DNA of 64,000 nt from a virus. A program made the position numbers and the translations under genes. Shown here piece by piece: positions 12,237 to 47,945 of the stretch (position 1 is its first letter; the number at the start of each line of letters is the position of its first letter). The notes under the pieces were generated by a model. The model had not been told where the DNA came from, did no database searches, and saw nothing but the letters and a program-made list of their open reading frames with translations. The stretch lies in IMG/VR virus record IMGVR_UViG_3300010391_000058, positions 19,490 through 83,489 of that record. One strand, given 5' to 3'.

Positions 12237-12575
12237 ATGACTACTCAAAACTTCGCAACAACTACAGTTACCTGGAAAGTGAATAAAAAGGTAAGCGCCT
12301 TAAAAACATCCCTTGCAAAAGAGCTGCCAGGTATCACAAACGAAACTATTAAAAAACTATTTGGCCGGCTTCCTTCAGGATGTAACCCCCGTGAAAAGTA
12401 CAGCGGTTTTATTACATTAACCAACGATTCAGAACCGGTAAAAGAGGCAAACAGCCCTTTTGAAGGTTCCGGTATATATACCCTATACTGTGCAAATGGT
12501 AAATGGAGGATAGGGGGGTTTTTCAAAAATCAATTTACGGATCAGCTTGCTGAGTATATAAACAGCAATAAATAA
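12237..12575 (+). CDS. Early hypothetical protein
   Basis: True start ATG 12237, downstream of the promoter; AAAACTTCGCA lies in codons 4-7. Confidence 0.7.
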   Translation: MTTQNFATTTVTWKVNKKVSALKTSLAKELPGITNETIKKLFGRLPSGCNPREKYSGFITLTNDSEPVKEANSPFEGSGIYTLYCANGKWRIGGFFKNQFTDQLAEYINSNK

Positions 12576-12604
12576 ATTTCATTCACTTCAAAAACTTCGC
12601 ACAA

Positions 12605-12835
12605 ATGAAAGTCATAAAACAGCCCTTTATCGGGCAACCTACAAACCAGGCAACCGGGTGCAGCGGCATTCAGGCGCTGGTGGAATCCATTTACATTCCA
12701 TACAGGGGCCAATTAATTGAACGGACATTAACCGGGTTTTCAGTAGATGGTGCCCCGGTGGGATCAGTGGAGGCAGCTAAGGAGCTGATAGATGGAAAGC
12801 GGGCATGGCAGGGGAAATCAGTAGTTAACTTTTAA
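12605..12835 (+). CDS. Early hypothetical protein
   Basis: Preceded by AAAACTTCGCACA. Confidence 0.65.
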   Translation: MKVIKQPFIGQPTNQATGCSGIQALVESIYIPYRGQLIERTLTGFSVDGAPVGSVEAAKELIDGKRAWQGKSVVNF

Positions 12836-12845
12836 ACTTCGCAAA

Positions 12846-13229
12846 ATGAAAATAACAGATACAGAAAAAAGAATATTGCAGAACCTACATTTGAAAGGAT
12901 GCACCGGAAAGATGGGATCACTTAATAAGGATCAACGGGGGAAGATATTAAAAGGCCTCCAGGATAAAGGATTGCTGGACAAAAATTGCCGGCCAACGCA
13001 AAAAGGCATTGAAGTTTCAGCCCCCTTTTATGTAGCGACAAATGAAGATAATTATGATGAGTGGGAGGGTGTTGTAATAGATAAGATCGAAGAGTTTTGC
13101 GAAGTAAGCCGGTCCGATGCTCAGGGTATTGTCGAAGCTCAGCCGTTTTACATGCAGCAGTGTTGGGCAAAAGGAATGACCGGCGAAGAGACAGCAAGGT
13201 TTATAGATGCAAGAAGTGTTGTAAAATAA
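12846..13229 (+). CDS. Early hypothetical protein (possible wHTH N-terminus)
   Basis: Preceded by AAACTTCGCA. Confidence 0.65.
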   Translation: MKITDTEKRILQNLHLKGCTGKMGSLNKDQRGKILKGLQDKGLLDKNCRPTQKGIEVSAPFYVATNEDNYDEWEGVVIDKIEEFCEVSRSDAQGIVEAQPFYMQQCWAKGMTGEETARFIDARSVVK

Positions 13230-13254
13230 TTTCGTAACAAATAAATTTTTTTAT

Positions 13255-13728
13255 ATGAATAAGCTTGGAGAAAGAAACTATCTTTTGCTCAGCCAGGGCG
13301 CAAAGACAACCGGCAACTATGTAGAGGCTTTTCACTATGCACAGGAGAGCTTGTATGTTCATGAGGCCGAAACCATTTATGCATTTTGTAAGTGGTGCCA
13401 GGAAGATACAGCAAACAGGTCATGGGGATCAGTTAACTATGAAATGAGATTTAAGCAGTTTTTGGAAGCAACGTTATCCAAAAACAAGTGTATGATATTT
13501 GAAGTTAAGAGAATAGAGCAAACCGTTGAAACCACTTTGATCGAAGCGGATAGCTTGGCAGAGGCAGAAGCTATTGCTGAAAAGGATCATGTATCATTCG
13601 GGAAAAATGAAGTTGTCAGTGCTGAAATTACCGCTGAGGAAGTAAATAAATTTCCAAAGGGCCGGATCATTTACACAGCTACAGGCTACAAAGATGCATC
13701 AGGAAAACAGCATGTTATAACAGGATAA
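13255..13728 (+). CDS. Hypothetical protein
   Basis: ORF track, in operon. Confidence 0.65.
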   Translation: MNKLGERNYLLLSQGAKTTGNYVEAFHYAQESLYVHEAETIYAFCKWCQEDTANRSWGSVNYEMRFKQFLEATLSKNKCMIFEVKRIEQTVETTLIEADSLAEAEAIAEKDHVSFGKNEVVSAEITAEEVNKFPKGRIIYTATGYKDASGKQHVITG

Positions 13729-13737
13729 AAATTTTAT

Positions 13738-14532
13738 ATGTTTAAACCTACAGCGAAAGGATACTTCAGCGGATGCGGCGGCATGGAATTAGGAATGATG
13801 CAGGCCGGTGTAAATATTATTCAGTCGCTTGACCTGGACAAACGGGCCACAGATACAATGATTGCCAACCCCCATTATTTCAATCACCCCATTTTGCACA
13901 AGGACATAAAAGATATAACGGTATTGCAGCAACATAGAAGTGATATCATTATTGGCACTTATCCATGCACTAAGTATTCAACCATTGCAGATATTCACGG
14001 ATGCAGAACCGGTGATGATCTGTTTTTACATTTCTTCAGGCACATTGCAATAGAGCAACCGGAAATGTATGTGGTTGAGAATGTACCAGGGATGAAAAAG
14101 TTTCCTATTGTAATGGAAGCCATGACACGGCTACCACAGTACTACATTAACGTTTTTTGCCCGATGAAAACAACCAATTGGCTACCACAGAAAAGGGACC
14201 GGCTAATTTTGATAGGGACAAAGAAGCCATTTTTTATAATGGAGCCTTCACAGATAGCAAACCGTCCCAGGATCAAAGATCTTATGGAATCAAACCCGGA
14301 TATTAATATACCAAAGAATGTGCTGAGCCGATTGAAGGGTAAATACCGGGACCTCCCGATTATAGTTGATCCTGACCAGCCGGGAGCAATGGCCCCGACA
14401 TGTGTAGCTCATTATGCAAAGGATCAGGGCACACGGTTGGTAAAGGATAAGAAAGGGCATTTTGTAAATGTTCTGAATGTAAGAAGATGGCTTACTATGA
14501 CTTTGTTCCGAACAGTCTCAGTACACCGATAA
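13738..14532 (+). pseudogene. dcm: C5-cytosine DNA methyltransferase, apparently C-terminally truncated
   Basis: Motif I FSGCGG, IV YPC, VI ENV and VIII QKRDR are present. No recognisable motif IX/X (RxxTxRExxRLQG..GN) after KDKKG. Confidence 0.6.
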
Positions 14533-14601
14533 TAACCACTCCATGTTCACATGATTTTAAACAATATTGGAAACATTTTTAAATAATAAAACTTCGCACA
14601 A

Positions 14602-15375
14602 ATGACAAAACAAGATGTATTAAAACAGTGTACCATTGAGGGTAATATAGTTCGCCTTCCAAACATTAAGCTGGACAGAAAACTTTATTTGGAAGTATCT
14701 ACAGCCCTTGGAGGCATAGCCGCTGGAGGGATCGGTGGCACATGGAACCGGCAGTTAAAAGGCTTTGTATTTGAAAAAGGATATGAGGATGAGCTTGCTT
14801 CACTCATGGCCAAAATATCGGGGGGAGAAAAAATAAACCTGCAGCAAGAATTTCAGTTTTTTGAAACACCGGATTTACTTGCTAATTGGCTGGTTGAATT
14901 AGCTGATCCTAAAATGACCGATTTTATACTGGAGCCCTCAGCAGGCCGGGGCGCAATTGTCAGGGCAATATGGAAAAGATTACCGGAAAAGATAATTTTT
15001 GGTTGTGAGATACAGCCATCTAATGTAAAAGCATTGAAGGCCATGGGTCCTTTCTATTCCAATATTACAGAAGATTTTTTGGAATTGGAGCCTTCATTAG
15101 AGTTATTCGATAAGATCATTGCAAACCCGCCTTTCAATAAGAACCAGGATATTGATCACATACAGCACATGTATAAATGCTGCAAACCAGGGGGCCGGAT
15201 CGTTTCAGTTGCAAGCAACCATTGGATGGAAGGGGGCAATAAAAAGGAAGCTGAATTCAGGGCCTGGTTATTCGGATTGAAAGCCAAAGTGCATGATATC
15301 GAAGAGGGAATATTTAAAGACAGCGGCACCATGGTAAGTACATGTGTGATCGTTATTGATAAACCTTTAAAATGA
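14602..15375 (+). CDS. Amino (N6-adenine-type) methyltransferase
   Basis: QFFETP, LEPSAGRG, NPPF motifs. Confidence 0.85.
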   Translation: MTKQDVLKQCTIEGNIVRLPNIKLDRKLYLEVSTALGGIAAGGIGGTWNRQLKGFVFEKGYEDELASLMAKISGGEKINLQQEFQFFETPDLLANWLVELADPKMTDFILEPSAGRGAIVRAIWKRLPEKIIFGCEIQPSNVKALKAMGPFYSNITEDFLELEPSLELFDKIIANPPFNKNQDIDHIQHMYKCCKPGGRIVSVASNHWMEGGNKKEAEFRAWLFGLKAKVHDIEEGIFKDSGTMVSTCVIVIDKPLK

Positions 15376-16016
15376 AAACTACACATTATACTAACGGATA
15401 TGGCGGGAAACTGAATTATGTAACCACTTGTGGTAAGGAAATTCACAGCCACAGCGAAACAGAATCAGCAACTATTGATCCATACAAAGTGACTTGCAAA
15501 GCCTGTAAGAAGTCGTTTGACTTTTTGGAGGATCTTTTACGAAAAGAAAGCGACCTTCCAGGCGTGAAGCGTAGAATATATCTTGAATCAGACGTTTTGC
15601 ATGCTACGGAATTAAGTAGAGCCCAAGATGAAGTTGGAGATTTGTGTTTAGAGAAAGGAGACAAATTTATCAGGCGGGTTTTTTCTGATGTGCTTGAATA
15701 TGCCTGGCATGATCTACCCGGAACATGGGAAGCAGTAAAAAAAGCAGATGAAATTTACTCCGATTCATCTTTGATCCCATTGGTTGGCGGTTCTTATTCA
15801 GGAGCTCCCGTTATTTTCAACGGTATGTGTGAGAGAGCAGTAAAAGAAAATATAAAAGGCAAGGACGTTTATATTCTGAATGAATTGAGTAATATATATT
15901 GGGATATGATTGATATTCCGATGATGAAAAAGGCATTTAAGTATAACAACCTGTTCATGTATAACAAAGAAAGAGAAATGATTAAAGTAGATATTTCCAA
16001 AATAAAAAAGAAATGA
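15372..16016 (+). CDS. Hypothetical protein with N-terminal Zn-finger
   Basis: H..TTCG...VTCKACK. Confidence 0.6.
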   Translation: MKTTHYTNGYGGKLNYVTTCGKEIHSHSETESATIDPYKVTCKACKKSFDFLEDLLRKESDLPGVKRRIYLESDVLHATELSRAQDEVGDLCLEKGDKFIRRVFSDVLEYAWHDLPGTWEAVKKADEIYSDSSLIPLVGGSYSGAPVIFNGMCERAVKENIKGKDVYILNELSNIYWDMIDIPMMKKAFKYNNLFMYNKEREMIKVDISKIKKK

Positions 16017-16017
16017 A

Positions 16018-16302
16018 ATGGCATTAGTAAGCTATGCAAAACAAATGTCTGAATTAGCAATAAAGGGGGCGAAGATTGCTAAGGAAAAAGGTATATTAGG
16101 CCAGTGTGGGAAGATGTGTGATACATGTGCCTTCAAATTGGATCAGAAACATAACCTTGATTACTTATTTGCAGCTGATCAGGCAGCCTTTCAGTTAATG
16201 TCAGAAGGTGAATTTTATTGTCATACACATGATTTCAAATGTGCTGATAAACCCTGTGCCGGCTTCACATTAGCAAAGCTTGTATTTGAAAAAGACGAAT
16301 GA
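16018..16302 (+). CDS. Cys-rich hypothetical protein
   Basis: CDTCAF...FYCH...CAG pattern. Confidence 0.65.
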   Translation: MALVSYAKQMSELAIKGAKIAKEKGILGQCGKMCDTCAFKLDQKHNLDYLFAADQAAFQLMSEGEFYCHTHDFKCADKPCAGFTLAKLVFEKDE

Positions 16303-17153
16303 GTTTAGAGTTAATCAATATGGCAATAGATCAGGGCGCTGTCCTTTACCCGAATGTTTCAGGGGGAAAGGACGGGCAGGCTATGGTAAAAACGATGATG
16401 AACAACGGCATTCCTATTGAAGGCCTTATCCATGCAGACCTTGGCAGGACAGAGTGGAAGGAGAGCATTGGCATGTGTGAAAAGCTTTCCAGGGAGACAG
16501 GGAAGCCGCTGCATGTAGTGAGAAGATCTGATGGCCGGGATATGATTGATCACTGGAGGCACCGGTTGAATCAATTGAAGGGCACCGGGAAACCTTTTTG
16601 GAGTAGTTCACAAAGCCGTTATTGCACCAGCGATATGAAGCGGGACCCTATAGATAAGTTTTACCGGAATTGCGGGCACAATTTTATAGTCAGCTGCGAA
16701 GGGATCAGGGGAGGCGAAAGCAAGCCACGGGCAAAGAAGATACCGTTAACAATTCGGACCAGGATAACGGCCCCGTATTACAAAGGAATGACCGTACAGG
16801 AAGCAATTGCAGCCTATAACCCTAAGCACCGTTTGGCGCTTACCTGGTACCCGATATTTCATTTTAGCCTGGAAGATGTTTTGGCCACATACGGCATGAA
16901 TTCGGCGGCGCTCCAGGTGTACCGGGATATTTACAAAGGGATCGGTAAAGTAATGGGTGGTTGGCCTTTTCATCCGGCATACGTTTATGGTAATAACCGG
17001 GTGAGTTGCGTGTTCTGCATCCTTGGTTGTAATAATGATCTGAAGGTAGGTGCAAAGCACCGGCCAGAGCTATTGAACATGATGATCGAAATGGAAGAGG
17101 AAGGGCAGGCAACTTTCAAAAATAACTTTTCACTCAAAGAATTATTGCAATGA
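16299..17153 (+). CDS. PAPS reductase family (PP-loop) protein
   Basis: VSGGKDG, RYCTSDMK, GIRGGES, RVSCVFC. Confidence 0.85.
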   Translation: MSLELINMAIDQGAVLYPNVSGGKDGQAMVKTMMNNGIPIEGLIHADLGRTEWKESIGMCEKLSRETGKPLHVVRRSDGRDMIDHWRHRLNQLKGTGKPFWSSSQSRYCTSDMKRDPIDKFYRNCGHNFIVSCEGIRGGESKPRAKKIPLTIRTRITAPYYKGMTVQEAIAAYNPKHRLALTWYPIFHFSLEDVLATYGMNSAALQVYRDIYKGIGKVMGGWPFHPAYVYGNNRVSCVFCILGCNNDLKVGAKHRPELLNMMIEMEEEGQATFKNNFSLKELLQ

Positions 17154-17586
17154 AAGATAAGAACCCAAAACCATTGTCAGCAGAAATGCAAAGGGTATTG
17201 GCTATGCTGTCTGAATATGGATGCCTTGTTAGATACAAGGGAGGTTTTTGGCATAAAGAAAATGCTGAAATGGAACCATTATCAGGTGGTGGCCGTTCAC
17301 CCGATGGCGGGCAATACCCTCCAGGATATTGCGGCACACTTACAATTCAGGCTTTATTGAAAAGAGATCTGATAAAGGTTGATGAATCGAAGCCAATAAA
17401 TATGTTTCGGACTTTTCCGGTAAAAGTATCACTTAAAAAAGAAGCGAATGAAAAGAAGGAAAATGATAAGAGCTGAGCGCCAATTTATCAGGGCTGGCAG
17501 AAAGCCATTATTGAGAAGGATAATTTATGAAGAGATAAAATATTGGAGACAGTTTAAAGACGGATTACCATTTTAAAATCAATTTT

Positions 17587-17994
17587 ATGGATATAAAACT
17601 TATACCGATATCGGAACAAGATGGCCGGGCAATTTTTTTCCCGGAAGAATTACCAATAGGTGAATTCATTTCAATGAGGTTGCTTGAAAAGCATACTGAA
17701 AGCGGTAAAACAGCCGTTGCATGGCTTATAGAATTCCCGGAAGAGATTCATGCTAAAAGAGTAATGGTAAAAGCCACGGCTAAAATTGCTGATGGAATGT
17801 TAGGAGCTGTCCGGGGAGCATGCCTAAAGTTTGGCGATTGGGATAACTATAAAGACAAAATGGAATTTGAAAATCAAATGGTAGCCAGTTTTGTTGCTTC
17901 CATGACAGATGAGCAGAGGGTAGAATTGTTTTCGAAATACTGTAAGCACTGCGGCAGTGATGATCCGGGATGCCAGTGTATGAACGATGAATAG
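17587..17994 (+). CDS. Hypothetical protein with Cys-rich tail
   Basis: YCKHCG...CQC. Confidence 0.6.
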   Translation: MDIKLIPISEQDGRAIFFPEELPIGEFISMRLLEKHTESGKTAVAWLIEFPEEIHAKRVMVKATAKIADGMLGAVRGACLKFGDWDNYKDKMEFENQMVASFVASMTDEQRVELFSKYCKHCGSDDPGCQCMNDE

Positions 17995-18205
17995 TATGGA
18001 TGATCAAAAACCTATATTGGATGAGGAACGGAATAAGAAGATCTGTGTTAACCCGGATTGCGGAGTAGTTGTATTAAACCATGATTGGCACGAAAAGCAT
18101 TGCCGGGATTGCGGAACGATATTGGTAAAAATCAATCAAAGGACTTTTGAAAAGAAGTTCACAGGCAACCGGCAGGCTTATTATCTTGAATGTTAAAATC
18201 ACTAT

Positions 18206-18481: not shown

Positions 18482-18538
18482 TACTTGGATAATACCACAA
18501 AATAACATTACCTTCAATCTTTCAAAAACTTCGCATGC

Positions 18539-25551: not shown

Positions 25552-26244
25552 ATGAAAAAGGGAATGGGCGGGCATCAATCCGCTGACAGTCGCACAATGA
25601 ATTGGCTTACGCCTAGGGAAGTTATTATGCAGTTGGGAGAATTCGATCTTGATCCCTGCAGCCCTATTAAACGGCCCTGGGATACAGCTAAGAAGCATTA
25701 CACTATTGAGGACAACGGATTGTTATTGCCATGGATCGGGAGGGTATGGCTGAACCCGCCTTATGGTGATCAGCTGGAAGCCTGGATGAAGTTAATGGCA
25801 GCTCATAACAACGGGATCGCATTGACGTTTGCCAGGACGGATACAGATGTATTTCACCGGTACATTTTCCCTGTTGCAGACAGCATATTTTTTTTAAAAA
25901 GCCGCTTATCTTTTGTTAACTTGGGAGGGATAAAAGCAAAGTCAGATGGCGGGGCCCCTTCAGTGTTTATTGCATACGGTGAATACAATAGTCAGGTTCT
26001 TGCTGATACGAAATTTGTAGGCAAACATGTACCCTTAAACTATACACCCTTCATTGTGGTTGGTATTTCGCCAACGTGGATATCGGTGGTAACGATAGCT
26101 GTAAGGCATTGCGGGGATGCAGAGCTGAAGCCGGTTTATGATATGGTTGAACGGTTGGCACCGGATAAGGTGGCCGGCAATCAGCACTGGAAAGAAAAGA
26201 TAAGGCAACAAATTCAAATAATCAGGAAAAATGGAAGTAGGTAA
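25552..26244 (+). CDS. Phage Dam-like N6-adenine methyltransferase
   Basis: WLTP, FDLDPC, VWLNPPY, ARTDT. Confidence 0.85.
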   Translation: MKKGMGGHQSADSRTMNWLTPREVIMQLGEFDLDPCSPIKRPWDTAKKHYTIEDNGLLLPWIGRVWLNPPYGDQLEAWMKLMAAHNNGIALTFARTDTDVFHRYIFPVADSIFFLKSRLSFVNLGGIKAKSDGGAPSVFIAYGEYNSQVLADTKFVGKHVPLNYTPFIVVGISPTWISVVTIAVRHCGDAELKPVYDMVERLAPDKVAGNQHWKEKIRQQIQIIRKNGSR

Positions 26245-26742
26245 TAAAATAAGTATTTTGGAATACGATCTAGGCGAAGTCAGAGAAGCAGAAATTTTGA
26301 ATATATTTAAAGAGAACGAAGATACACGCATGGATATTATTACTTATAGATACTTTGGTAAAATTTTAAAAGTTTGGCATTATAGAATAAGAAGAAGATT
26401 TGAGTTTGAGTCTGCAATTGAGCAAGCTGAAAAATATAAATAAATGAGTATAGAGATTACAGATAATCTATTAAAGGAATTGATTGAATTATGTAAGTGC
26501 GAAGTTTCAATCTCGGTGAATACTCATCGAAATTATTATGAAACAGTAGAAGATAACTTGCGTGATGTTATTGACAATAAGGAAGTATCTGATGAGGTGT
26601 ACCAGGAAATGAAAAGAAGAGACACTGTTATTCGTGTCCAAGCTTATCCGGATACTCCAGTCGGTTTTTACTCAGCATACCATTGGGATATCAGTATAGC
26701 ACTGCAGGAAGTTATTGAATCAATTAAAGCAGAAAGGAAGTA

Positions 26743-28455
26743 ATGGGAGCTATAATTACAGAAACTCAGAAAGGTTTTGAAGTGAAGATCATTCCCTATG
26801 ACGAAGGGATAAAGAATGCATTTAAAGGCATTAAGTATTCATGGTACCGGGGCCAGGATAAGACTTGGGTTGTTCCAAAATACCAGCAAGATGAGCTTGA
26901 AAGGGTAAAAAAGAGATTGGGAATCATGAACGATCCGGTTATTGAAATGGAAGAGCAGTATGGTGTAATACCACCACATCCCGATCTTAATATTGATTTG
27001 AAATTAAAAAGGCCATTGCTTAAATTTCAGGAACCGGGAGTTGCTATAGCTATCCAATGGAAAAAATCTATTTGCGGGGATGATATGGGCCTTGCAAAAT
27101 CAAGCACAGCAATAGCAGTAGCCAAGGCGCTGAACAGTAAATGTGTCCTGGTTATCTGCACGAACCTTGCAAAATACAATTGGCAGAATGAGATTATGAT
27201 TGCTGACGGGCAAAAAAGCATGGTGATCAGCGATTCAGGAGTAAGCAGCTGGCAGCTTTATTACAAAAATGGTAATATCAAATACTTTATAGTCAACTAT
27301 GAATCGTTAAAAAAATACTTTGTTAAACCAGGCTGGAAAAAACCACCGGGCCAATTCAGGTTATCAGCTATTCCTTTCCGGGAATGCATCAGCTTATTTG
27401 ATTTTGTTATTGTAGATGAAAGTCATAATTGTGCCAACCCGGAGACACTACAGAGCCGGTTTGTCCGGGGTATTTGCAAGGATAAGCCTGCAGTAATATG
27501 TTTGACGGGCACAATCTTAACCAATAGTGTAAAGGATATCGCAAACCAGCTATTGATCGTTGACAGGCTGAAGGACGTTGTTTCTCATATACCACACCCG
27601 GTTGATCAATATGGCAGGCCAACAGACAGGGATGGATATACTAGATTCTTAAACAGGTATTGCAATGGCGGGAACGGAGAAAGCAATTTGAATGAGCTGC
27701 AGTATAGGTTACGGATGATATGTTATTTCCGGAGACAGAAGTCAGAGGTGTTGAAGGATCTGCCTGACAAGATAAGGAATGTAATGTATTGCGATATCAC
27801 AAACAGGGAAGAGTACGATAAGTTTGAAAAGGAATTCATTGCTTACCTGAAAGAGATAAAGGCCTCAAATAATCCGAATAAAAAGGCCATGCTTGCCGGG
27901 CAGATGTTGGTTAAATTAGGAGCACTCAGAGAAATAGCTGCCCGGGGAAAGATTGGAGCAGCAAAAGAGTATGTTGATCAAGTAACCAGCTCAGGGAAAA
28001 AGGTTGTGATATTCGCTCACCACAGATCAGTGATTACCGAATTAAAAAAGAATTTTGGTTCATGTTCAATAACCGGGGAAGATGATAGTGACCACCGGCA
28101 GCGGTCAATAAAAAGTTTTCAGAACAACCCAAAAGAAAATAAAATTACCTGCAGCCTGAAAGTGGCAGGTGAATCTATTACTCTTACAGCGGCTTCTGAT
28201 GTTCTTTCAGTAGAACAACCGTTGACCGATGCCCGGCTGGAGCAGTGTATTGACAGGCTTCACAGGATAGGGCAGGTAAATAAAGTTATGGCAGCTATTC
28301 TTTTGGCCCGGAAAACAGTTGATGTGTATGTATATCACAATATCATTTTAAAGAAAAGGGATTTGCTGCAGGCAGTAACCGGTGATCATGGGCAGGGCCC
28401 GGATCAGATAATTGATGATATGCTGGAATACTTTTCAAAGAGAGAAAAAGAGTAA
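26743..28455 (+). CDS. SNF2-like helicase
   Basis: DDMGLAKS (Walker A variant), DESH, LTGT, DRLHRIGQ. Confidence 0.85.
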   Translation: MGAIITETQKGFEVKIIPYDEGIKNAFKGIKYSWYRGQDKTWVVPKYQQDELERVKKRLGIMNDPVIEMEEQYGVIPPHPDLNIDLKLKRPLLKFQEPGVAIAIQWKKSICGDDMGLAKSSTAIAVAKALNSKCVLVICTNLAKYNWQNEIMIADGQKSMVISDSGVSSWQLYYKNGNIKYFIVNYESLKKYFVKPGWKKPPGQFRLSAIPFRECISLFDFVIVDESHNCANPETLQSRFVRGICKDKPAVICLTGTILTNSVKDIANQLLIVDRLKDVVSHIPHPVDQYGRPTDRDGYTRFLNRYCNGGNGESNLNELQYRLRMICYFRRQKSEVLKDLPDKIRNVMYCDITNREEYDKFEKEFIAYLKEIKASNNPNKKAMLAGQMLVKLGALREIAARGKIGAAKEYVDQVTSSGKKVVIFAHHRSVITELKKNFGSCSITGEDDSDHRQRSIKSFQNNPKENKITCSLKVAGESITLTAASDVLSVEQPLTDARLEQCIDRLHRIGQVNKVMAAILLARKTVDVYVYHNIILKKRDLLQAVTGDHGQGPDQIIDDMLEYFSKREKE

Positions 28456-34235: not shown

Positions 34236-34262
34236 TTCCTGTTATCTTCGAATTATAACAGT

Positions 34263-34351: not shown

Positions 34352-34370
34352 ATCTTCTAAAACAAGTCAA

Positions 34371-37336: not shown

Positions 37337-37542
37337 GAAAAATTCATATTTCGTAAGGTATAAAATAAGAGAGCATGAGCACATGACTGCCTTCGATTTA
37401 ATAATCAAGCCGGGAACATGTGCAACATATATTATGAATCCATTGATGATAGATAAAATACTTGAAATATCAATAAAAGGAATAGAAAGAAAAGAGGTAC
37501 AATTTTTATCAATATGCTTACTGAATTCGGAAAAGATATAAA

Positions 37543-41664: not shown

Positions 41665-42739
41665 GTGGGGTAAAAATGCACGACTTTTTTCAAACTGAAC
41701 TTTCGATGCTTGACACCTACATGTTATTGATTGTAAGAATGATGTAAAAGAATTTGGAATGTCAAGTGGAATATCAAAACAAAAGTGGTGTAAGAATACA
41801 GGAGAAAAAAACAAACTGACCAAAATGCTTGACCAGAGATGAGCGCAGAAACAAAAGAGATAGTATTAATAGCGGATCGGAGTTGTAAGACATGTATCAA
41901 GAACGAAGTGTGCAGGCATTATTTCGATCTTCATAAATTAATAGGTGAAATGCCACAGCACGGAGCCCCGCATAAAACAGATATCTTATATGACTGTTTA
42001 GCAAATTCATGTTTGTTATTCCAAAAAAAGAAAACAAAATAAGTTCTATATGCTACTACAATTAGAAATGGATATTGATAAGGCAGATCAGCATTTCCAA
42101 CATGCCCCGCAATCTGTTATTGATGCTCATTTAAAAGAAAGGTGGACTAAGGAGTTTACAAAAGCAGTTTTCCCGATGGCCCCCTTTGCGCTTGTAAAAG
42201 GGGCACCGGGCAATGTTACCAGGTATCGAAGCGGTATATGTATTTTGGCTGAATCTCAGTTAAACCATACCTTAGACATGCTGAAGATATTGAAGGGGGT
42301 AAGTCCTGAGAGAGACAATATCATTGATGCGATCCGGGAAGAGCTTTTAAACCGATGAAATGACAGCTGAACAAAAATATTCGAAAGCAATTGCAATAGC
42401 TGAATCGGTTACTGAGACGGCCACGGGGATTGTTCGTGAATTAAAGAAGCTACCGAAAGGGAAGCATAAGCGGAATGTATTTATAAAAACATACAATAGA
42501 AGGCCTGGCAATAAAAGGAAGCGGGCAATTGTTATGATGAATTCAAGCATGTCGGCAATGATGGGAGCTATGCAGGTGGCAATGATCATGCAGACACCAA
42601 TACCCAAATTAAAACCTGGAGGAATTGCGATATGAAGGTTAAAAGCAAATGGTATTGGCATGGGTTATTCATCTTACTGATCCTTTGCTTAACATTTTTT
42701 GTTTTACTATTAACTGGAGCACTAAAATAAACTTTATAT

Positions 42740-43363
42740 ATGAGTGAAGAGACTAATCAACCAGCTGCAACAGCCCTGGCACCGATTACATGGGAGCCAA
42801 AAAAAGTGTATGTAAAGGATTTGAAAGAAAATCCACAGAACCCCAAAATAATTACTGAAGCAGGTAGGCGGCGCTTGCATTTGTCTTTGGATAAATTCGG
42901 GTTGGCCGGCACCATGTCAGTGAATGATGATCTTACAATTATAGACGGTCATAGCCGAAAATCAGAATTGGAAATGAGGGGTATTGAAGAGGTTTGGGTA
43001 TCAGTTCCATCCAGGCCGTTGACAGATGAAGAGTATAAAGAAATGAATGCAATGTTTGATCATGCCAGGGCCGGAGAAGTAGATAAATTCATGACTGAAA
43101 ACCTTTTCAGGGATGAAATGCTGATTGAATGGGATTTGAAGAGCCCAAAAAAAGAGGCTGGAGAAAAAGGGTTGTTCCCGATTGTGCCGAAGTTCGATGA
43201 AAAGCATGATGCATTCGTTATAATCTGTCAAACGGAAAGTGAGATATCTTTTATTCAGAATGCATTGATGCTGGAAGAGAATAGCAGCTACAAAAATAAA
43301 AACACCGGTATCACATTTGTAACCACTGGAAAAAACTTTATTAAGGTATGGCAATCGAAATAA
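42740..43363 (+). CDS. ParB/Srx-like domain protein
   Basis: NPQNPK...KFG...IIDGHSR. Confidence 0.75.
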   Translation: MSEETNQPAATALAPITWEPKKVYVKDLKENPQNPKIITEAGRRRLHLSLDKFGLAGTMSVNDDLTIIDGHSRKSELEMRGIEEVWVSVPSRPLTDEEYKEMNAMFDHARAGEVDKFMTENLFRDEMLIEWDLKSPKKEAGEKGLFPIVPKFDEKHDAFVIICQTESEISFIQNALMLEENSSYKNKNTGITFVTTGKNFIKVWQSK

Positions 43364-44076
43364 AGGTGGTGATCCCTTCAGCTGGAAGGCCCCATAGACA
43401 GAGCACAATAAAACATGTAGCCAATGCAATCATTTGTGTTCCGGAAAAGCAAAAGGCGCTGTATGAAGAGCGGAATAAGGATAATGAGATTGTGGCCCAC
43501 CCGGACAGCATTCTTGGTTTGGGGCCTAAAAGGAATTGGATCTATGAGAAGTTTGGAAACGTGTTTATGATAGATGATGATACCCATGGTTTGCAGCGGC
43601 TATATGAAACCAGGGTAACGATCTGCAGCCCTGAGCAGGCTTATGATATCATTCAGAGCCTTGGCAACCTGGCAAAGATATCCGGCAATTATTTATATGG
43701 CTTTTCGAAGTATGCAAACACCCTCCAATATACAGGCCTGAAGCCATTTGCGTTGACCGGTTACATCAATGGAGTTGGTATTGGGTTGATCGAAAAGAGC
43801 CTGTTGAAGTTTTCAGATAAAATAACATGCAACAACGATGTTTTCATTTCATGTTTGAATGCTCACTATTACCATACATGCTTTATTGATACCAGGTTTT
43901 CATTTAAACAGGATGGAGTGAATAAGGGTGTTGGTGGTATGTCGTTGATCAGGAACCCGGAAACTGATAAAAATGATATTGAATTTTTAAAAAAGTCATT
44001 TGGCAGTGTGCTAAAGTTTAAGCAGCGGGCAGGATCAGCGAAGCAATGGAACATAATGTTGAAACTTCCTTTTTAA
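43348..44076 (+). CDS. GT-A glycosyltransferase, GREB1/TAGT-like
   Basis: IPSAGR, KRNWI, MIDDD, NKGVGG; translationally coupled to the ParB-like gene. Confidence 0.65.
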   Translation: MAIEIKVVIPSAGRPHRQSTIKHVANAIICVPEKQKALYEERNKDNEIVAHPDSILGLGPKRNWIYEKFGNVFMIDDDTHGLQRLYETRVTICSPEQAYDIIQSLGNLAKISGNYLYGFSKYANTLQYTGLKPFALTGYINGVGIGLIEKSLLKFSDKITCNNDVFISCLNAHYYHTCFIDTRFSFKQDGVNKGVGGMSLIRNPETDKNDIEFLKKSFGSVLKFKQRAGSAKQWNIMLKLPF

Positions 44077-44260
44077 GGGCTGCACTCAGCAATTGTGCTA
44101 AAATCTGATGCAAGAAATGTGGCTTCCTTGGACGATCAGGCAATTTTCAGCATTACCTACACAAAAGAAAGTGCTTGCTAGAATTGAAGCTAATGGCCTC
44201 CCAGGTCATTTTTGGGGGTTTAGGGCCCCCGGAACCGGTCAAAATATGACTTCCCCCGGC

Positions 44261-44419
44261 AATTGATTCATTTTCAGGGCCTCATAATTGATTCATTTTC
44301 AATAAAGAATTTACTATAATTTATTGATTTACAATAGTATTGGATCAATCAGGTTGCTATATTTGATTTATCAAAGAGGGATAAAGACCCCGATTTTTAA
44401 ACTTAAAAACTCCGCAATC
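44261..44419 (+). promoter_or_regulatory. Early promoter cassette, copy 1
   Basis: Two TGATTCATT repeats 25 bp apart, TTGCTATATTTG at 44354, leader hairpin, AAAACTCCGCA. Confidence 0.75.
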
Positions 44420-44656
44420 ATGTCAACGAAAATCATTTTAAAAAAAGAGTGGACTTCAAAAGTAACTTTGTCAAATAGCCAGGTGCTAGTTGTAAAATGG
44501 GTTGCTGCCCTTTCAAAGAAAGGTTCTTTCATTATAGCCAATTTCGTAGGTGACAGTAAAAAAATGTCAGTATATCAGCGGGGAATGTCTTGGTCAAAAG
44601 ATCACTTCTTTTTCTTTGATGCCGTAAAAAGAGCCAAAAAAAACTTACCCCGATAA
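44420..44656 (+). CDS. Early hypothetical protein
   Basis: True start ATG 44420. Confidence 0.6.
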   Translation: MSTKIILKKEWTSKVTLSNSQVLVVKWVAALSKKGSFIIANFVGDSKKMSVYQRGMSWSKDHFFFFDAVKRAKKNLPR

Positions 44657-44686
44657 TCAATTTATAAACCTAAAAACTTCGCACAA

Positions 44687-44998
44687 ATGAAAAATACACC
44701 TCAAAAAACCTTTACGGCAATAATGAATGTTTGCCAGGTAAACAACTTCCTTTCTTCAGCCACAAACATGTGGTGCAATTCAGTAGATGAACTCAGGACG
44801 TTCAAAAAGTTCATCCGCATTGAAGAGACAAAACCGTATGACCAGTTGACTGATAAAAATACATTCGTTTCCGCTCAGGAATTACGGGAGTACATGCCGG
44901 CGCAATTATTCAGAGAAATGGAATGTGTGGTTGTCACCTGTCTTATTGAACAGCGGTGGATTGTTGAAATTAAACCTATAAACTCAGTTGTATGTTAG
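44687..44998 (+). CDS. Early hypothetical protein
   Basis: Preceded by AAAACTTCGCACA. Confidence 0.65.
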   Translation: MKNTPQKTFTAIMNVCQVNNFLSSATNMWCNSVDELRTFKKFIRIEETKPYDQLTDKNTFVSAQELREYMPAQLFREMECVVVTCLIEQRWIVEIKPINSVVC

Positions 44999-45172
44999 TA
45001 GTTAAAACCCAGGCCGAAATTGATGAAATGAAAGAAACGGATAGCTATAAAAATGGTGATATCAAGATTATCAGCACAAAAGATATTGGAAACGGCCTGT
45101 TTGAATTGATATTGGAAATCAATTAACCTTCAAAGTGTCTCTTATTTTTAAACCATAAATAAAAACTTCGCA

Positions 45173-46294
45173 ATGAAAAAAACAAGTAAGGCCCCTGCAG
45201 CCAAAAGTGCAGGAAAAAAAGTGATCAATGTAAAGACAGTGGTGACTACCACAACCAAGATGCCCAAAGCCAAAAAGGAAAAGAGCACGGTGCCAGGGTT
45301 TGAAAACCTTCCTGCCGATGCGGTTGAATTCGAAACTCCGGCCCTGGTAGTTGATATGCTACAAACCAATGATGTAAGCGGTGGATCAGTGCTTACCCAG
45401 GTGCCTGAGCCGGAACCAAAAACAGCTCAGGAAATATTTTTGGCAAAGGAGAAAAAGGCAGCTTTGAAAAATGATAACATCTTTATTGATGTTAAGCTGG
45501 AAAACCTTTCTAATCTTACCGGGTTGAAAGTAAGGAAGGGCTTCAGTAAGGTAGTTGTGGCTGAGGGTGAAATAGTAAATGTAGTTAGTCCGAATTACTT
45601 CCTTTTAAAGAATGAAGATTTTTTCCTGGAAGTCGAAAAGAAGTTGATGGAGGCTGATATCAAATACATCAGCAGATCAATTAACCGGCAGAACAGTGAT
45701 TTTGCAGTTGATTACATTTTAGCTGATGAGAATTACCATGTGGATGTAAAAGGCGGGAAAGATAAAATTATCCCGATGCTGAGATTTACGAACATGTACG
45801 GTGGTGGCCCATGTACCGGGAAGTTCGGATTTTTCAGGGAAGTATGTGCCAACGGATTGCATGTTGCCGAAACTAAAGTTGGCTTCAGGATTGGACACAG
45901 GATCAACAGATCAGAGTTGATAATGCCGAACATTAAAGAGCTGGTGGGCCAGTTTTTAAGCAATGAATTTTATAGCCTGCACAAAAAGTTCAAAGTACTT
46001 GCTGAAACCCCGATCACAGACCTGAGTGAATTCGTAAAGTTCACATGTACAAAAATGGATCTGTTTAAGTATGAAGCCAGTGAAAAGAACCCGGATACCC
46101 CAAGTGCAAAAGCTCAGTTGGTGATGGATACCATTTTAGCTGAAAGTAAGGAGTTGGGTGTTGAACCGAATCTTTGGATTGGATACAATGCCTTCAATGT
46201 AGCGGTGCATAGCAGCAATAAGAAGGCCTTCAGTAAGCAAATGAAAACTGATGGTGTTTTATTCAATACGGTTTATGAAATGGCTGCGAATTAA
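45173..46294 (+). CDS. DUF932-like protein with Lys-rich N-terminus
   Basis: VVSPNY.LLKN...N.YGG...REVCANG...H; preceded by AAAACTTCGCA. Confidence 0.65.
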   Translation: MKKTSKAPAAKSAGKKVINVKTVVTTTTKMPKAKKEKSTVPGFENLPADAVEFETPALVVDMLQTNDVSGGSVLTQVPEPEPKTAQEIFLAKEKKAALKNDNIFIDVKLENLSNLTGLKVRKGFSKVVVAEGEIVNVVSPNYFLLKNEDFFLEVEKKLMEADIKYISRSINRQNSDFAVDYILADENYHVDVKGGKDKIIPMLRFTNMYGGGPCTGKFGFFREVCANGLHVAETKVGFRIGHRINRSELIMPNIKELVGQFLSNEFYSLHKKFKVLAETPITDLSEFVKFTCTKMDLFKYEASEKNPDTPSAKAQLVMDTILAESKELGVEPNLWIGYNAFNVAVHSSNKKAFSKQMKTDGVLFNTVYEMAAN

Positions 46295-46316
46295 TTAGGA
46301 CGGTCAATAGTAGATG

Positions 46317-46346
46317 AAACCCCTGGCAGTTTGCCGGGGGTTTTTT
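46317..46346 (+). terminator. Intrinsic terminator
   Basis: AAACCCCTGGCA-GTT-TGCCGGGGGTTTTTT. Confidence 0.85.
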
Positions 46347-46419
46347 ATTCAGGTAAGGCACAATAAAGAGGGCCGGGAAACGGCAGGAAACAGGCCTAAA
46401 ACCAGGTAAAAGTGTGTTT

Positions 46420-46580
46420 AACTGATTCATTTTTAAGGCTTCATAACTGATTCATTCTCAATCCGTGTTTTTATATAATATATTGAAATACAGGTACTTT
46501 GGATTAAAAGCCTTGCTATATTTGAAAGATCAAAGGGGGAAAAGAAAACCCCGATTTTTAAACCTCAAAAACTTCGCACT
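46420..46580 (+). promoter_or_regulatory. Early promoter cassette, copy 2
   Basis: Two TGATTCATT repeats 25 bp apart, TTGCTATATTTG at 46513, leader hairpin, AAAACTTCGCAC. Confidence 0.75.
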
Positions 46581-46934
46581 ATGTTACATTATTCAAAAAT
46601 GATAGACCTTCTGGAAATGCCAGGTACAAAGCAAATGCTGATTAATTATTATACGGGCAAAGCTTCAGGAACGGATGTAAAAAAATACTTTGCGGATCAT
46701 ATAGCCGGGATGGATGATTTTTACCGGAATGCCTTTAATTCATATTTAAGCGATTTGCCGGAAAGTTATTTGGATGATGATTCAATTGAATCGTCAAATT
46801 CAAAGCTAAGTGGTATTTACGATTTTGATTTTGATGAAGCTCCGGAAGGATTGCAGGATAGGGCCGAAATTATCCGGTGGGATATATGCCGTGTTGTTAT
46901 ATCATTTTACCAGGGCCAAAAACAAACAGTATAA
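46581..46934 (+). CDS. Early acidic hypothetical protein
   Basis: Preceded by AAAACTTCGCAC. Confidence 0.65.
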   Translation: MLHYSKMIDLLEMPGTKQMLINYYTGKASGTDVKKYFADHIAGMDDFYRNAFNSYLSDLPESYLDDDSIESSNSKLSGIYDFDFDEAPEGLQDRAEIIRWDICRVVISFYQGQKQTV

Positions 46935-46960
46935 TTATCAACCTCTAAAAACTTCGCACC

Positions 46961-47275
46961 ATGGCAAAGCCGACACTATTACCGGATGAAACTTTTTCAG
47001 TAGTAACCTTTTCCAGGGAATCACTTGAAAAACAAACTGATACTTTATTAACGGACACGTTGATAAATTTCGAAACCAATTATGCGCCTCTTTATCTGCA
47101 TAATGAAATTGGATCTGGAGTACATTTATTCAGCAGGGAGGTGTTAACCAGGCTTTGCGAAGGCAAAGAGGATGTTATGGCAATACCGGGCTATGCTGAG
47201 ATGAAAGCAGACCTGGAAGAGATAGGCCGGATCATGGATGAGCAGAAAGCCACTTATTTCCGGGTGGTAAAATAA
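46961..47275 (+). CDS. Early hypothetical protein
   Basis: Preceded by AAAACTTCGCAC. Confidence 0.65.
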   Translation: MAKPTLLPDETFSVVTFSRESLEKQTDTLLTDTLINFETNYAPLYLHNEIGSGVHLFSREVLTRLCEGKEDVMAIPGYAEMKADLEEIGRIMDEQKATYFRVVK

Positions 47276-47300
47276 AATATTAATCATTAAAACTTCGCAC

Positions 47301-47945
47301 ATGAAAGTAGTAACCAAAAAGGGCTATGACTTTTTCGTAGTAACCAGCGCATTTCAGAAAGCCATTAGAAGAGGGGATGAAACTGTAGCCGTATATCTTC
47401 TGGTGGAATTATTCAACTCAGGGTATGAAAAGTATTTATGGAAGCGGCTAAAGATCATTTCCAGTGAGGATATCGGTTTAGCGGTTCCAAATATGCCGGC
47501 AATCATTCAGGCCCTATATACCAGCTACCAGGAAACGATGAAGGACAGCGAAACAACGGCAAAGGAAGGGATGAGTAGCAGGCCGGAGAGAATGTTTTTA
47601 CTTCATGCGGTATTACTTCTTACCAGGTGCAAGAAGTCCAGGCTAGTTGATTGGGTGTTAATCGAAGCATGGAGAACCCATGATGAGAATCACATGAAAA
47701 TTCCGGACTATGCTTATGATATGCATAACTTTAAGGGCAAGCAGATGAACCGGGGGATAGATCATTTTTACGATGAAGGGACTTTATTAGGAAACTTTTG
47801 TGAGCAACCAGGTGAAAAGGAATGGAAGGAGAAAGCCAGAACAGCACACAAAACAAAGCCGGGCAAATTAAAGTTTGCAGTAGTAAAGAAGGCAAATATT
47901 TCACAGCAACAGGTTATGTTTGAGCCGGAAGAAGATGCAAAATAG
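47301..47945 (+). CDS. MgsA/RarA C-terminal-like protein lacking the AAA+ domain
   Basis: SAFQKAIRRGD...WKRLKIISSEDIGLA...IPDYAYDMH. Confidence 0.7.
   Translation: MKVVTKKGYDFFVVTSAFQKAIRRGDETVAVYLLVELFNSGYEKYLWKRLKIISSEDIGLAVPNMPAIIQALYTSYQETMKDSETTAKEGMSSRPERMFLLHAVLLLTRCKKSRLVDWVLIEAWRTHDENHMKIPDYAYDMHNFKGKQMNRGIDHFYDEGTLLGNFCEQPGEKEWKEKARTAHKTKPGKLKFAVVKKANISQQQVMFEPEEDAK

Follow-up and report, generated by a model that had tools for sequence, protein, structure and literature searches.

An exact tag at the translation starts of non-structural phage genes as the probable shared target of a phage-encoded antisense RNA

Antisense control of single phage genes is textbook knowledge, as in P1 c4, P22 sar and lambda OOP, and the specificity of c4 differs between related phages through matched changes in RNA and target. 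Control of many phage genes by one factor is seen with T4 RegA, a phage factor that binds the start regions of numerous early mRNAs and halts their translation. Bacterial trans-acting base-pairing sRNAs, including those of Bacteroides, have their own promoter, an exposed seed, an intrinsic terminator and several start-region targets. The nearest published parallel to the sequence tag analyzed here is provided by the start-associated sequences (SAS) of Cluster K mycobacteriophages, which, according to the available part of the original article, lie 3-7 bp before start codons, and whose reader, be it a protein or an RNA, the authors of that article, in the same part, did not settle (Pope et al., 2011; PMC3203893). 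In the accessible parts of two later articles, the role of SAS is still called unknown, in 2024 (PMC11373665) and in 2025 (PMC12699233). In the literature searched, supplements not being covered, we found no paper on a phage RNA that governs a dozen of the phage's own genes through an identical start-codon tag.

We analyzed a window of 64,000 nt (positions 19,490-83,489 of IMG/VR record IMGVR_UViG_3300010391_000058; coordinates are those of the window) from an 83.5-kb DTR phage that encodes many DNA-modifying enzymes and whose host is probably a Chitinophagaceae bacterium. A scan detects 11 copies of the exact 10-mer AAACTTCGCA on the + strand and 1 copy on the - strand, that is, 12 matches vs. 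0.21 expected (0 of 100 shuffles reached 12), with no further copies elsewhere in the whole 83,489-bp genome. The tag is absent from the first 19.5 kb of the genome, which is structural, and none is found at terL, portal or tail genes. Ten of the copies end 0-3 nt upstream of a start codon. The initial annotation had described a 10-mer pinned to translation starts and missing from structural genes, with one one-mismatch copy upstream of ATG 44420 and one copy embedded in a coding region; the scan confirms each of these points, and the coordinates given there, lower by 1 nt at copies with an additional A in front of the 10-mer, are right for the 11-mer. The accompanying statement that all copies are on the sense strand is wrong: the - strand contains an exact copy at 26498-26507 and a 9-of-10 copy at 48738-48747. 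The start-associated copies are as follows.

12248-12257, + strand: tag, in codons 4-7 of the ORF from ATG 12237, the first gene after the promoter at 12175-12186
12592-12601, + strand: tag, 3 nt before ATG 12605; 76 aa, no family
12834-12843, + strand: tag, 2 nt before ATG 12846 (127 aa); overlaps the upstream stop codon
14589-14598, + strand: tag, 3 nt before ATG 14602; N6 DNA methyltransferase-like, 257 aa
18526-18535, + strand: tag, 3 nt before ATG 18539; 80 aa
23007-23016, + strand: tag, 2 nt before GTG 23019; 85 aa
44407-44416, + strand: one-mismatch tag AAACTCCGCA, 3 nt before ATG 44420; weak pairing predicted with the candidate sRNA described below
44674-44683, + strand: tag, 3 nt before ATG 44687; 103 aa
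45163-45172, + strand: tag, abutting ATG 45173; DUF932 protein, 373 aa
46569-46578, + strand: tag, 2 nt before ATG 46581; 117 aa
46949-46958, + strand: tag, 2 nt before ATG 46961; 104 aa
47290-47299, + strand: tag, 1 nt before ATG 47301; MgsA_C-like protein, 214 aa

The conserved stretch is only ~13 nt long (motif positions -3 to +11). Consecutive cistrons are each tagged (12237/12605/12846; 44420/44687/45173, then 46581/46961/47301), in one case with the tag in a 10-nt gap and overlapping the preceding stop codon, and this repetition argues that the tag is a per-cistron, that is, RNA-level, signal. The MgsA_C-like gene bears its own phage's tag both in the 83.5-kb phage and in the provirus G307, which has a different tag (see below); it is thus the phage, and not the gene, that determines the tag. 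Host-type promoter cores head three tag clusters.

12175-12186, + strand: promoter core TTGCTATATTTG, host-type, heading the first tag cluster
44354-44365, + strand: promoter core TTGCTATATTTG, host-type, heading the second tag cluster
46513-46524, + strand: promoter core TTGCTATATTTG, host-type, heading the third tag cluster

In all three clusters the promoter stands 40-60 nt upstream of the first tag, which places that tag within the 5' UTR. That the tagged genes are "early genes," as they had been called from the outset, is not shown, and is only inferred from these host-type -7 promoters. The promoter at 44354-44365 lies within a ~165-nt cassette that is colinear with a cassette at 46414-46583.

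Two 11-nt perfect complements of the tag consensus, hereafter mirrors, are present on the + strand of the whole genome, vs. 0.035 per genome expected from second-order Markov shuffles (0 of 400 shuffles had two). One of the two mirrors lies in a candidate small RNA.

48708-48715, + strand: -7 box TATATTTG, Bacteroidota-type, upstream of the candidate sRNA and itself preceded by TTGCAC
48722-48786, + strand: candidate sRNA, ~65 nt, comprising hairpin 1 and then a terminator-like hairpin with U7; 5' end inferred, unmapped
48736-48746, + strand: tag mirror TGTGCGAAGTT, located in the hairpin 1 loop and complementary to AACUUCGCACA
26497-26507, + strand: second tag mirror GTGCGAAGTTT, 11 nt, inside the ORF at 26444-26743, just upstream of a SNF2 helicase gene

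Hairpin 1 begins 9 nt after the -7 box and has a predicted stem (48725-48731 paired with 48748-48754) that closes a 16-nt loop, in which UGUGCGAAGUU is the exact complement of AACUUCGCACA. An exposed seed complementary to several mRNA start regions, one property by which an sRNA can be recognized, is thus present in the form of an 11-nt complement in a 16-nt loop. The predicted fold of the candidate sRNA has a free energy of -33.4 kcal/mol (RNAfold; z = -4.66), and 0 of 200 shuffles were equally stable. The terminator-like hairpin (48756-48783, with U7 at 48780-48786) is GC-rich, has a single G-G mismatch in the stem and is called only by RNAfold and by a laxer scan; a simple terminator scan of 48500-49000 called no terminator. 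Positions no more than 40 nt 5' of a terminator of this kind make up just 0.43% of the strand. No Rfam 15 covariance model, including that of C4 (RF01695), matches the window at gathering score, the best match over 48650-48850 being RF02278 (E = 0.28; 17 bits vs. a cut-off of 50). The second mirror remains unexplained, the local structure around 26497-26507 not being significant (z = -0.87), and mirror copies are therefore not confined to the sRNA.

The loop is predicted to pair over 9-11 bp with all 11 exact tag copies, covering positions -13 to -1 at the 10 start-proximal copies, and up to +4 in one of them; the eleventh copy, in the ORF from 12237, lies at +11 to +20. Duplexes between the loop and the start regions of the 11 exact-tag genes have energies of -12.2 to -19.0 kcal/mol, vs. 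a median of -7.0 kcal/mol for 128 start regions, and the best 8 loop duplexes among the 128 start regions all belong to tag genes, a ranking that is by construction a consequence of the motif. The mismatched tag at 44407 is not among the 22 best loop duplexes.

The same layout recurs in a distant relative, G317 (61 kb, 79% complete; proteins 25-60% identical to those of the 83.5-kb phage). G317 has six tag copies, each 2 nt before an ATG, and exactly one reverse copy, which follows a -7 box TATTTTTG, lies in the loop of a hairpin with stem GGGGAG/CUCCCU and precedes a terminator. The loop core is the same as in the 83.5-kb phage, whereas the sequences of stem and terminator differ, the stem changes being compensatory. 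Short ORFs overlap both elements (44 aa from TTG in the 83.5-kb phage; 53 aa in G317); their products are unalike (E = 0.29), and the ORFs are not conserved. One tag is common to G000, G317, G318 and G001, and the sample numbers of G001 and G317 are neighboring. In an unrelated 53-kb provirus, G307 (96% complete), we find a different tag, AACCAAAATCA, in 11 copies on the gene strand, 2-7 nt before an ATG (6-7 nt in 10 of 11) and including four consecutive small genes. G307 contains one reverse copy of AACCAAAATCA, directly 5' of a terminator (one of only two found on that strand), and nowhere else on the strand is there a better duplex partner than this site (16 bp, -23.1 kcal/mol); 0.055 mirror copies of this kind are expected from shuffles. 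In the minimum-energy fold the G307 mirror is not in a closed hairpin loop, and lies instead in a partly open stretch before the terminator. No mirror copy was found in the proviruses G308, G309 and G311 (records 74%, 76% and 52% complete), which have their own start-proximal motifs. In a blind reverse scan, 228 records or loci (2.73 Mb) with 2,483 terminator-like sites were screened for sites preceded by a 9-mer that complements three or more start regions; the scan returned only the three RNAs of the 83.5-kb phage, G317 and G307, plus one trivial, ATG-containing match. A further property by which an sRNA can be recognized, that RNA and targets be kept or changed together in relatives, is also observed: G317 has the same loop core, and G307 a different tag with a matching mirror.

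We conclude that one antisense sRNA, encoded by the phage, probably has AAACTTCGCA as its common target and occludes start regions throughout a private regulon. The tag marks 10 non-structural starts from 0-3 nt upstream, with one further copy at codons 4-7 and one mismatched copy, in operons headed by host-type -7 promoters; according to this proposal, the ~65-nt RNA from 48722-48786 would display UGUGCGAAGUU in the loop of hairpin 1, followed by its terminator-like hairpin; pairing over 9-11 bp would cover -13 to -1 of the targets, and up to +4 in one; and the resulting duplex would keep the 30S subunit off the start codon. If 30S subunits are kept off these start codons, one RNA would lower translation of the whole set together. 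No transcript has been seen, and we regard a switch of the whole gene set by one RNA as probable. Observation covers the tag and where it stands, the complementarity of tag and mirror, the fold as predicted, the reappearance of this layout in a relative, and the joint change of tag and mirror in another phage; synthesis of the RNA, its pairing in vivo, repression as opposed to activation, and the stage of infection or lysogeny at which it acts are inferences. The pairing is short, and the direction of its effect is not addressed by any result. The initial annotation had argued for an operator at the RNA level, covered by a protein or a pairing RNA, and against a DNA site or a substitute for a Shine-Dalgarno sequence; this inference gains support from a candidate pairing RNA that is encoded in the phage's own genome and recurs in G317, and further support from the different tag of G307 with its different, matching mirror.

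A protein could take the place of the RNA. If the tag were the operator of an RNA-binding translational repressor of phage or host, similar to T4 RegA, the mirrors would be coincidental or competitors, and a per-cistron, start-proximal, sense-strand tag with one copy inside a coding region would fit too. No RNA-binding domain was found among 20 proteins scanned; however, most tag-associated and neighboring proteins have no family, so an unknown RNA binder cannot be excluded. What a protein operator leaves unexplained is that each of three phages has one mirror by a terminator, in two of them with a -7 box, and that the mirror changes along with the tag, and we consider it unlikely. A site for a sequence-specific DNA-binding protein, serving as operator or roadblock in both orientations, could draw on the presence of 11 + 1 exact copies in the two orientations and on the many DNA-modifying enzymes of the phage, but the strong orientation bias, the pinning of copies 0-3 nt from start codons, and the reverse copies in RNA hairpin or terminator units of three phages make it scarcely credible.

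Two further readings connect the tag to the initiation machinery. The last two bases of the tag are CA, 0-3 nt upstream of the start codon, and the tag could be a compact promoter or transcription-start element at which a phage-modified polymerase starts at this final CA to yield a nearly leaderless mRNA for each gene; in the related proviruses G308 and G311, a start-proximal 9-mer comes ~13-20 nt after ATCAAT(C/T)A, a bipartite layout that looks promoter-like. In the 83.5-kb phage, however, no second conserved element is present at a fixed upstream distance (nothing >0.7 bit upstream of position -3), host-type promoters already stand upstream of the first tag in three clusters, as they do at ~30 nt in G318, one tag copy lies 11 nt downstream of its own ATG, and a mirror copy in an RNA hairpin is not predicted, so that we hold a promoter to be quite unlikely. 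Alternatively, the host ribosome itself might read the tag as a translation enhancer, through rRNA pairing or a ribosomal protein. Chitinophagaceae translate without Shine-Dalgarno pairing, no Shine-Dalgarno sequence is visible upstream of any gene of the 83.5-kb phage, and a looser AAACTT / TAAAAC flavor is enriched before other starts (AAACTT upstream of 12 of 116 genes vs. 2.0 expected). Against an enhancer, the longest complement of the tag in the 16S rRNA of the candidate host Lacibacter luteus (the true host is not known) is 7 nt and internal, with none at the 3' end; five Chitinophagaceae genomes contain the 10-mer at control level (4-14 copies each, vs. 4-26 copies of the reversed 10-mer as control); of 301 Chitinophagaceae genomes, 75 contain the tag-plus-ATG pattern, at no more than 5 per genome, with controls similar by eye (not summed); and one tag copy lies downstream of the start codon. 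We judge this reading very unlikely. The two outcomes that the initial annotation had named as refuting its proposal, that is, a motif equally frequent away from starts or a generic host start-region motif, are both negative, the former in the genome-wide scan of both strands and the latter in the 5 and 301 Chitinophagaceae genomes.

An antisense sRNA that reads start-site tags may have a wider meaning. It is possible, although doubtful on present evidence, that the reading of private start-site tags by one antisense RNA is a general device of phages across phyla, providing an RNA master switch for non-structural genes and an immunity code, with a scope that takes in Bacteroidota phages (three cases, two tags) and possibly Cluster K SAS. 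If so, a resident or co-infecting phage would silence incoming genomes bearing the same tag. If the antisense sRNA proposed for the 83.5-kb phage is real, hosts that initiate without Shine-Dalgarno pairing would have an RNA counterpart of T4 RegA; the exactness and phage-specificity of such tags would be explained; and SAS, whose role has been open since 2011, would have a concrete candidate reader, in phages that are cultured, engineered and in therapeutic use. Tag/mirror pairs are easily found computationally, and in uncultured phages they could serve as markers of co-regulated gene sets and possibly of immunity groups.

In Cluster K itself, an RNA link is only partly supported. The SAS reverse copy of phage Anaya (record positions 59870-59882) lies in an apical hairpin loop in the gp96-gp97 gap, 138 Cluster K records retain this region, and an alignment of 8 phages reveals compensatory change at 9 of 44 predicted pairs; support is partial because the mirror is kept in the loop in only 5 of these 8. 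Ekdilam, Amgine and Keshu keep the SAS consensus and have different loops.

As far as the available part of the SAS article goes, SAS and the tag are alike in being short asymmetric motifs of 11-19 copies, at non-structural genes only and absent from the host genome, and in having a single reverse copy against an otherwise uniform orientation (Pope et al., 2011; PMC3203893). They differ in that the SAS consensus is 13 bp long, GGGATAGGAGCCC, and contains a Shine-Dalgarno core, whereas AAACTTCGCA is unlike it and has no such core, and the Cluster K phages have a host of another phylum, with other translation signals, than the 83.5-kb phage. Compared with bacterial sRNAs, the regulon here consists of the phage's own genes and shares an identical tag rather than partial seed matches, and no chaperone is known. 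RegA is a protein and recognizes a loosely defined sequence, whereas the candidate here is an RNA with an exact target of 9-11 nt. The c4 antisense RNA of P1 and P7 (immI) is, according to the accessible part of the source, likewise a phage sRNA that pairs near a ribosome-binding region and blocks phage genes (Citron and Schuster, 1990, in PMC8198154). The candidate sRNA has no sequence or Rfam relationship to c4, and the two differ in reach: c4 acts on one operon (icd-ant) and is itself processed from it, whereas the sRNA described here would act on a dozen dispersed cistrons that share a tag.

The tag, that is, the 10-mer AAACTTCGCA found just 5' of start codons, is present in 11 copies on the + strand and in one copy on the − strand, where shuffled sequences yield an expected 0.21 copies (window coordinates throughout unless otherwise stated). 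Ten of the + strand copies end 0-3 nt 5' of a start codon (9 ATG, 1 GTG), as the initial annotation had claimed in describing the tag as pinned to translation starts, and its tag coordinates are correct to within 1 nt. The other + strand copy is within codons 4-7 downstream of ATG 12237, and a copy with one mismatch (44407) is located 3 nt 5' of ATG 44420; both had been reported and both were recovered. The position immediately following the tag, position 11, is C in 7 of the 11 exact copies. The exhaustive scan that had been proposed as a check, covering both strands and the whole 83,489-bp genome, gives no exact copy beyond these 11 and 1, and thus none in the rest of the genome. The further claim that all copies are on the sense strand does not hold, since it overlooked an exact − strand copy at 26498-26507 and a 9/10-match − strand copy at 48738-48747. 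Products of the tagged genes are N6 methyltransferase-like, DUF932, and MgsA_C-like proteins and eight small proteins without assigned family. Consecutive cistrons carry one tag each (12237/12605/12846; 44420/44687/45173, then 46581/46961/47301), and one tag occupies a 10-nt intergenic gap, overlapping the preceding stop codon.

The 83,489-bp record has 99-bp direct terminal repeats, is rated complete, and carries almost all genes of the phage on the + strand. Capsid and tail genes are located in the initial 19.5 kb of the genome as well as in the window's first 8 kb, and a non-structural stretch extends from 8.7 to 53 kb. The non-structural stretch encodes C5, N6, and Dam-type methyltransferases, a PAPS-reductase-like protein, an ERF recombinase, an SNF2 helicase, DUF5131, a TET-associated-type glycosyltransferase, DUF932, the MgsA_C-like protein, and, on the − strand, UDP-galactopyranose mutase. 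The methyltransferases, the glycosyltransferase, and the opposite-strand mutase form a dense DNA-modification set (13738-16016, 25552-26244, 43348-44076, and, − strand, 48785-49876). No gene of the phage is preceded by a Shine-Dalgarno sequence; leaders are A/T-rich, and −7 type boxes of the Bacteroidota form, TAnnTTTG, are found. The host is guessed, from sequence similarity alone, to belong to the Chitinophagaceae, because the phage's IS1595-family transposase shares 88-90% identity with copies from Chitinophagaceae MAGs, Niabella, Ferruginibacter, and Lacibacter. Among the sequencing runs searched, no RNA run contains sequence of the phage; the sole match is a DNA run from a sediment metagenome, possibly the one from which the record derives.

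Landmarks and promoters of the phage
53702-55366: terL
61490-62959: portal gene
genome 2417-3346 (L099), outside the window on its 5' side: IS1595-family transposase
44255-44422 and 46414-46583: two colinear promoter cassettes of ~165 nt, each with two copies of TGATTCATT, the core TTGCTATATTTG, and a GGGG/CCCC leader hairpin
12120-12260: third promoter, having only the core TTGCTATATTTG and the leader hairpin in common with the two cassettes

The tag could in principle be a host motif, a site of pairing with rRNA, or part of a promoter. A generic host start-region motif would have refuted the reading in the initial annotation, but the tag occurs in five Chitinophagaceae genomes at only 4-14 copies each, which is not above a reversed control, and 75 of 301 genomes of the family match the tag-plus-ATG pattern, with a maximum of 5 matches per genome; the host-motif reading is thus rejected. 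One Chitinophagaceae genome (G210) has five tag-plus-ATG matches across three contigs, four of the five reading AAAACTTCGCAAATG, with none in the control; these may represent a repeated element. Comparison with host 16S rRNA, another check that had been suggested, was made with one 16S rRNA of the candidate family, that of Lacibacter, in which the longest complement to the tag is 7 nt and internal, and a role as rRNA-pairing enhancer was rejected. A conventional promoter was likewise rejected: information content is limited to ~13 nt, and no conserved element is located upstream at a fixed distance. Each of the three tag clusters starts with the same host-type core, TTGCTATATTTG, located 40-60 nt 5' of the first tag, followed at each cluster head by the small GGGG/CCCC leader hairpin, and the tag therefore is inside transcripts. 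The copy in codons 4-7 is compatible with occlusion and with neither a promoter nor a Shine-Dalgarno-like role, as had been argued. A tag read at the level of the ribosome remains a small rival, kept alive by the unexplained enrichment of looser sequences, AAACTT, TAAAAC, and ATAAAC, at positions −25 to −1 of untagged genes, structural genes included (for AAACTT, 12 of 116 untagged genes genome-wide vs. 2.0 expected). This enrichment may reflect a general leader preference of phage or host.

A reverse-complement copy of the tag (a "mirror") is present on the + strand in a predicted unit of ~65 nt, 48722-48786, in the gap between an ORF (48274-48690) and the convergent glf gene. We refer to this unit as the candidate sRNA.

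Features of the candidate sRNA and of the second mirror (+ strand)
48708-48715: −7 type box TATATTTG, 5' of hairpin 1
48725-48731 pairing with 48748-48754: hairpin 1, 7 bp with a 16-nt loop
48736-48746: tag mirror TGTGCGAAGTT, within the loop of hairpin 1, perfect complement of AACTTCGCACA
26497-26507: second perfect 11-nt tag mirror, inside ORF 26444-26743, directly 5' of the SNF2 helicase gene

Hairpin 1 is followed by a second, GC-rich hairpin containing a single G-G mismatch, and then by a U7 tract; this terminator-like element is missed by a simple terminator scan and called by a scan permitting one mismatch. A 69-nt stretch of the candidate sRNA has a predicted folding energy of −33.4 kcal/mol (z = −4.66), no Rfam family matches it, and a coding reading of the unit was rejected. 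The whole + strand contains two 11-nt complements of the 13-nt tag consensus, one in the sRNA loop and one inside ORF 26444-26743, vs. 0.035 expected, and none of 400 second-order Markov shuffles contained two; positions at most 40 nt 5' of a terminator-like hairpin make up only 0.43% of the strand. Local RNA structure at the mirror inside the ORF is not significant (z = −0.87). For the start-proximal copies, predicted duplexes between loop and target span positions −13 to −1 of the start regions; for the mismatched copy at 44407, predicted pairing with the loop is weak.

The same tag is found by pattern scans 5' of start codons in three other IMG/VR records, G001, G318, and G317. The last of these, a distant relative (61 kb, 79% complete) with proteins 25-60% identical to their phage counterparts (SNF2, 38%; MgsA_C-like protein, 54%), has six copies, all 2 nt 5' of ATG, including one at its SNF2 gene, and exactly one reverse copy, in the gap 3' of a 106-aa gene. 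The unit containing this mirror consists, 5' to 3', of a −7 box (TATTTTTG), a 10-nt spacer, a hairpin (GGGGAG/CUCCCU) with loop UUUACCUGCGAAGUUUU, and a terminator with U8. Its architecture and loop core are like those of the candidate sRNA; its terminator and every stem position are different. As a separate observation, the SNF2 gene is itself tagged at its start in G317, and in the window the in-ORF mirror at 26497-26507, itself unexplained, lies upstream of the SNF2 gene. The other two records are fragments with two tag copies each. G318 (10.8 kb) has a TATATTT box ~30 nt 5' of each copy, and G001 (22 kb) has no protein in common with the phage at E <= 1e-5. The first ~1.1 kb of G001 (L097:1-1100), which contains both of its tags, looks more G+C-rich than the rest, as judged by eye only, and may represent a mosaic or chimeric junction.

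A different tag with a matching mirror is present in G307, an unrelated 53-kb provirus (96% complete) reached via relatives of the MgsA_C-like protein. Its tag, AACCAAAATCA, occurs in 11 copies on the gene strand, 2-7 nt 5' of ATG (6-7 nt in 10 of the 11), four of them at consecutive small genes and one at its own MgsA_C-like gene. One reverse copy is present, in a gap of ~200 nt (0.055 expected from shuffles), directly 5' of a terminator that is one of only two found on that strand by the one-mismatch scan. No site on the entire strand is a better duplex partner for the tag than this mirror (16 bp, −23.1 kcal/mol); the minimum-energy fold places it in a stretch that is partly open, not in a closed loop.

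Close relatives of the phage are scarce. None of 16 loci with terL relatives (37-56% identity) contains the tag, or, within the stretch examined, a start-proximal repeat of its own; the single IMG/VR locus with a DUF932 relative (53% identity) has no tag; and a larger DUF932 search gave 273 proteins with top identities of 62-64%. An IMG/VR scan for the tag plus ATG gave 69 single matches, with two copies only in L058/G001, and a scan with the exact 15-nt sRNA loop gave 25 matches, which we take as chance because none is in a hairpin and none is accompanied by tags. Searches with one G001 protein and one G307 protein each found only the query's own record. A metagenome scan with the MgsA_C-like protein gave 36 loci (353,088 bases); the only one flagged for a tag-bearing start-proximal repeat, L417, is identical to G307 over 20,065 nt and was rejected as a new case, and L425, L428, and L431 were flagged solely for A/T-rich or 3-copy 8-mers.

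A blind reverse scan of 228 records or loci (2.73 Mb; 2,483 terminator-like sites) for 9-mers just 5' of a terminator and complementary to at least three start regions returned the RNAs of the window, G317, and G307 and one trivial ATG-containing match. Start-proximal motifs are present in three further, related proviruses: TTCTAAGCA before six starts in G308 (L248-L250) and 4-5 in G309 (L251-L253), and AGTATCAC(A) upstream of three starts in G311 (L267-L269). These motifs have two parts, ATCAAT(C/T)A and, ~13-20 nt on, 1-3 nt 5' of ATG, a second element that differs among proviruses, being TTCTAAGCA or AGTATCAC(A). No mirror copy is present in these three records, which are 52-76% complete, and this absence weighs against generality; near the end of the G309 record, one arm of a hairpin contains a partial complement of 10 nt, which was not counted as a mirror. 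Six other provirus records (G310, G312-G316) have no motif with at least four start-proximal copies.

Tag plus mirror is thus a layout shared by two related phages and by a third phage whose tag is different. The initial annotation had inferred that the tag is an RNA-level operator occluded by a pairing RNA or a protein, and the complementary hairpin loop at 48736-48746 in the same genome supports this inference. Translation initiation in Bacteroidota relies on the leader being A-rich and open. Of the readings considered, the best supported is that an antisense RNA acts in trans to occlude the 30S subunit at tags: the exposed loop would pair with the tag and block 30S binding. The −7 type box is of the host type, and the RNA therefore would be produced from the onset of infection or from a prophage. 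The outcome would then be one of two: early proteins made in a pulse that limits itself, or tagged genes silenced in lysogeny. The RNA could additionally act on incoming phages bearing the same tag; timing, direction of effect, and the idea of immunity are all inference. We consider it probable that the phage encodes an antisense sRNA that regulates translation of a private gene set marked by the tag; expression of the sRNA is unproven.

The closest published pattern is that of the start-associated sequences (SAS) of Cluster K mycobacteriophages. The SAS motif is 13 bp long, is present in 11-19 copies located 3-7 bp 5' of the starts of non-structural genes together with a single reverse copy, is absent from the host, and is of undetermined function (PMC3203893); reports from 2024 and 2025 (PMC11373665, PMC12699233) still give the function as undetermined. 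In one such phage, Anaya, we find in record positions 30000-60835 15 forward SAS copies (<=2 mismatches) and one reverse copy (59870-59882), the latter in the apical loop of a hairpin, GCGCGG/CCGCGC, in the unannotated gp96-gp97 gap. A structured non-coding region there (L254:29790-29960; Anaya record 59789-59959) is conserved and kept in 138 Cluster K records. In an alignment of eight phages, 9 of 44 predicted pairs of the Anaya region show compensatory changes. The mirror-RNA link for Cluster K SAS is suggestive only, because in three of the eight aligned phages (Ekdilam, Amgine, and Keshu) the SAS consensus is retained but the loops are not complementary. A literature search, which did not cover supplements, returned no phage sRNA with a tagged regulon and no non-coding RNA linked with SAS. 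The c4 RNA of P1 and P7, the classical antisense repressor of phages, acts on one operon (PMC8198154), unlike the candidate sRNA with its tagged regulon.
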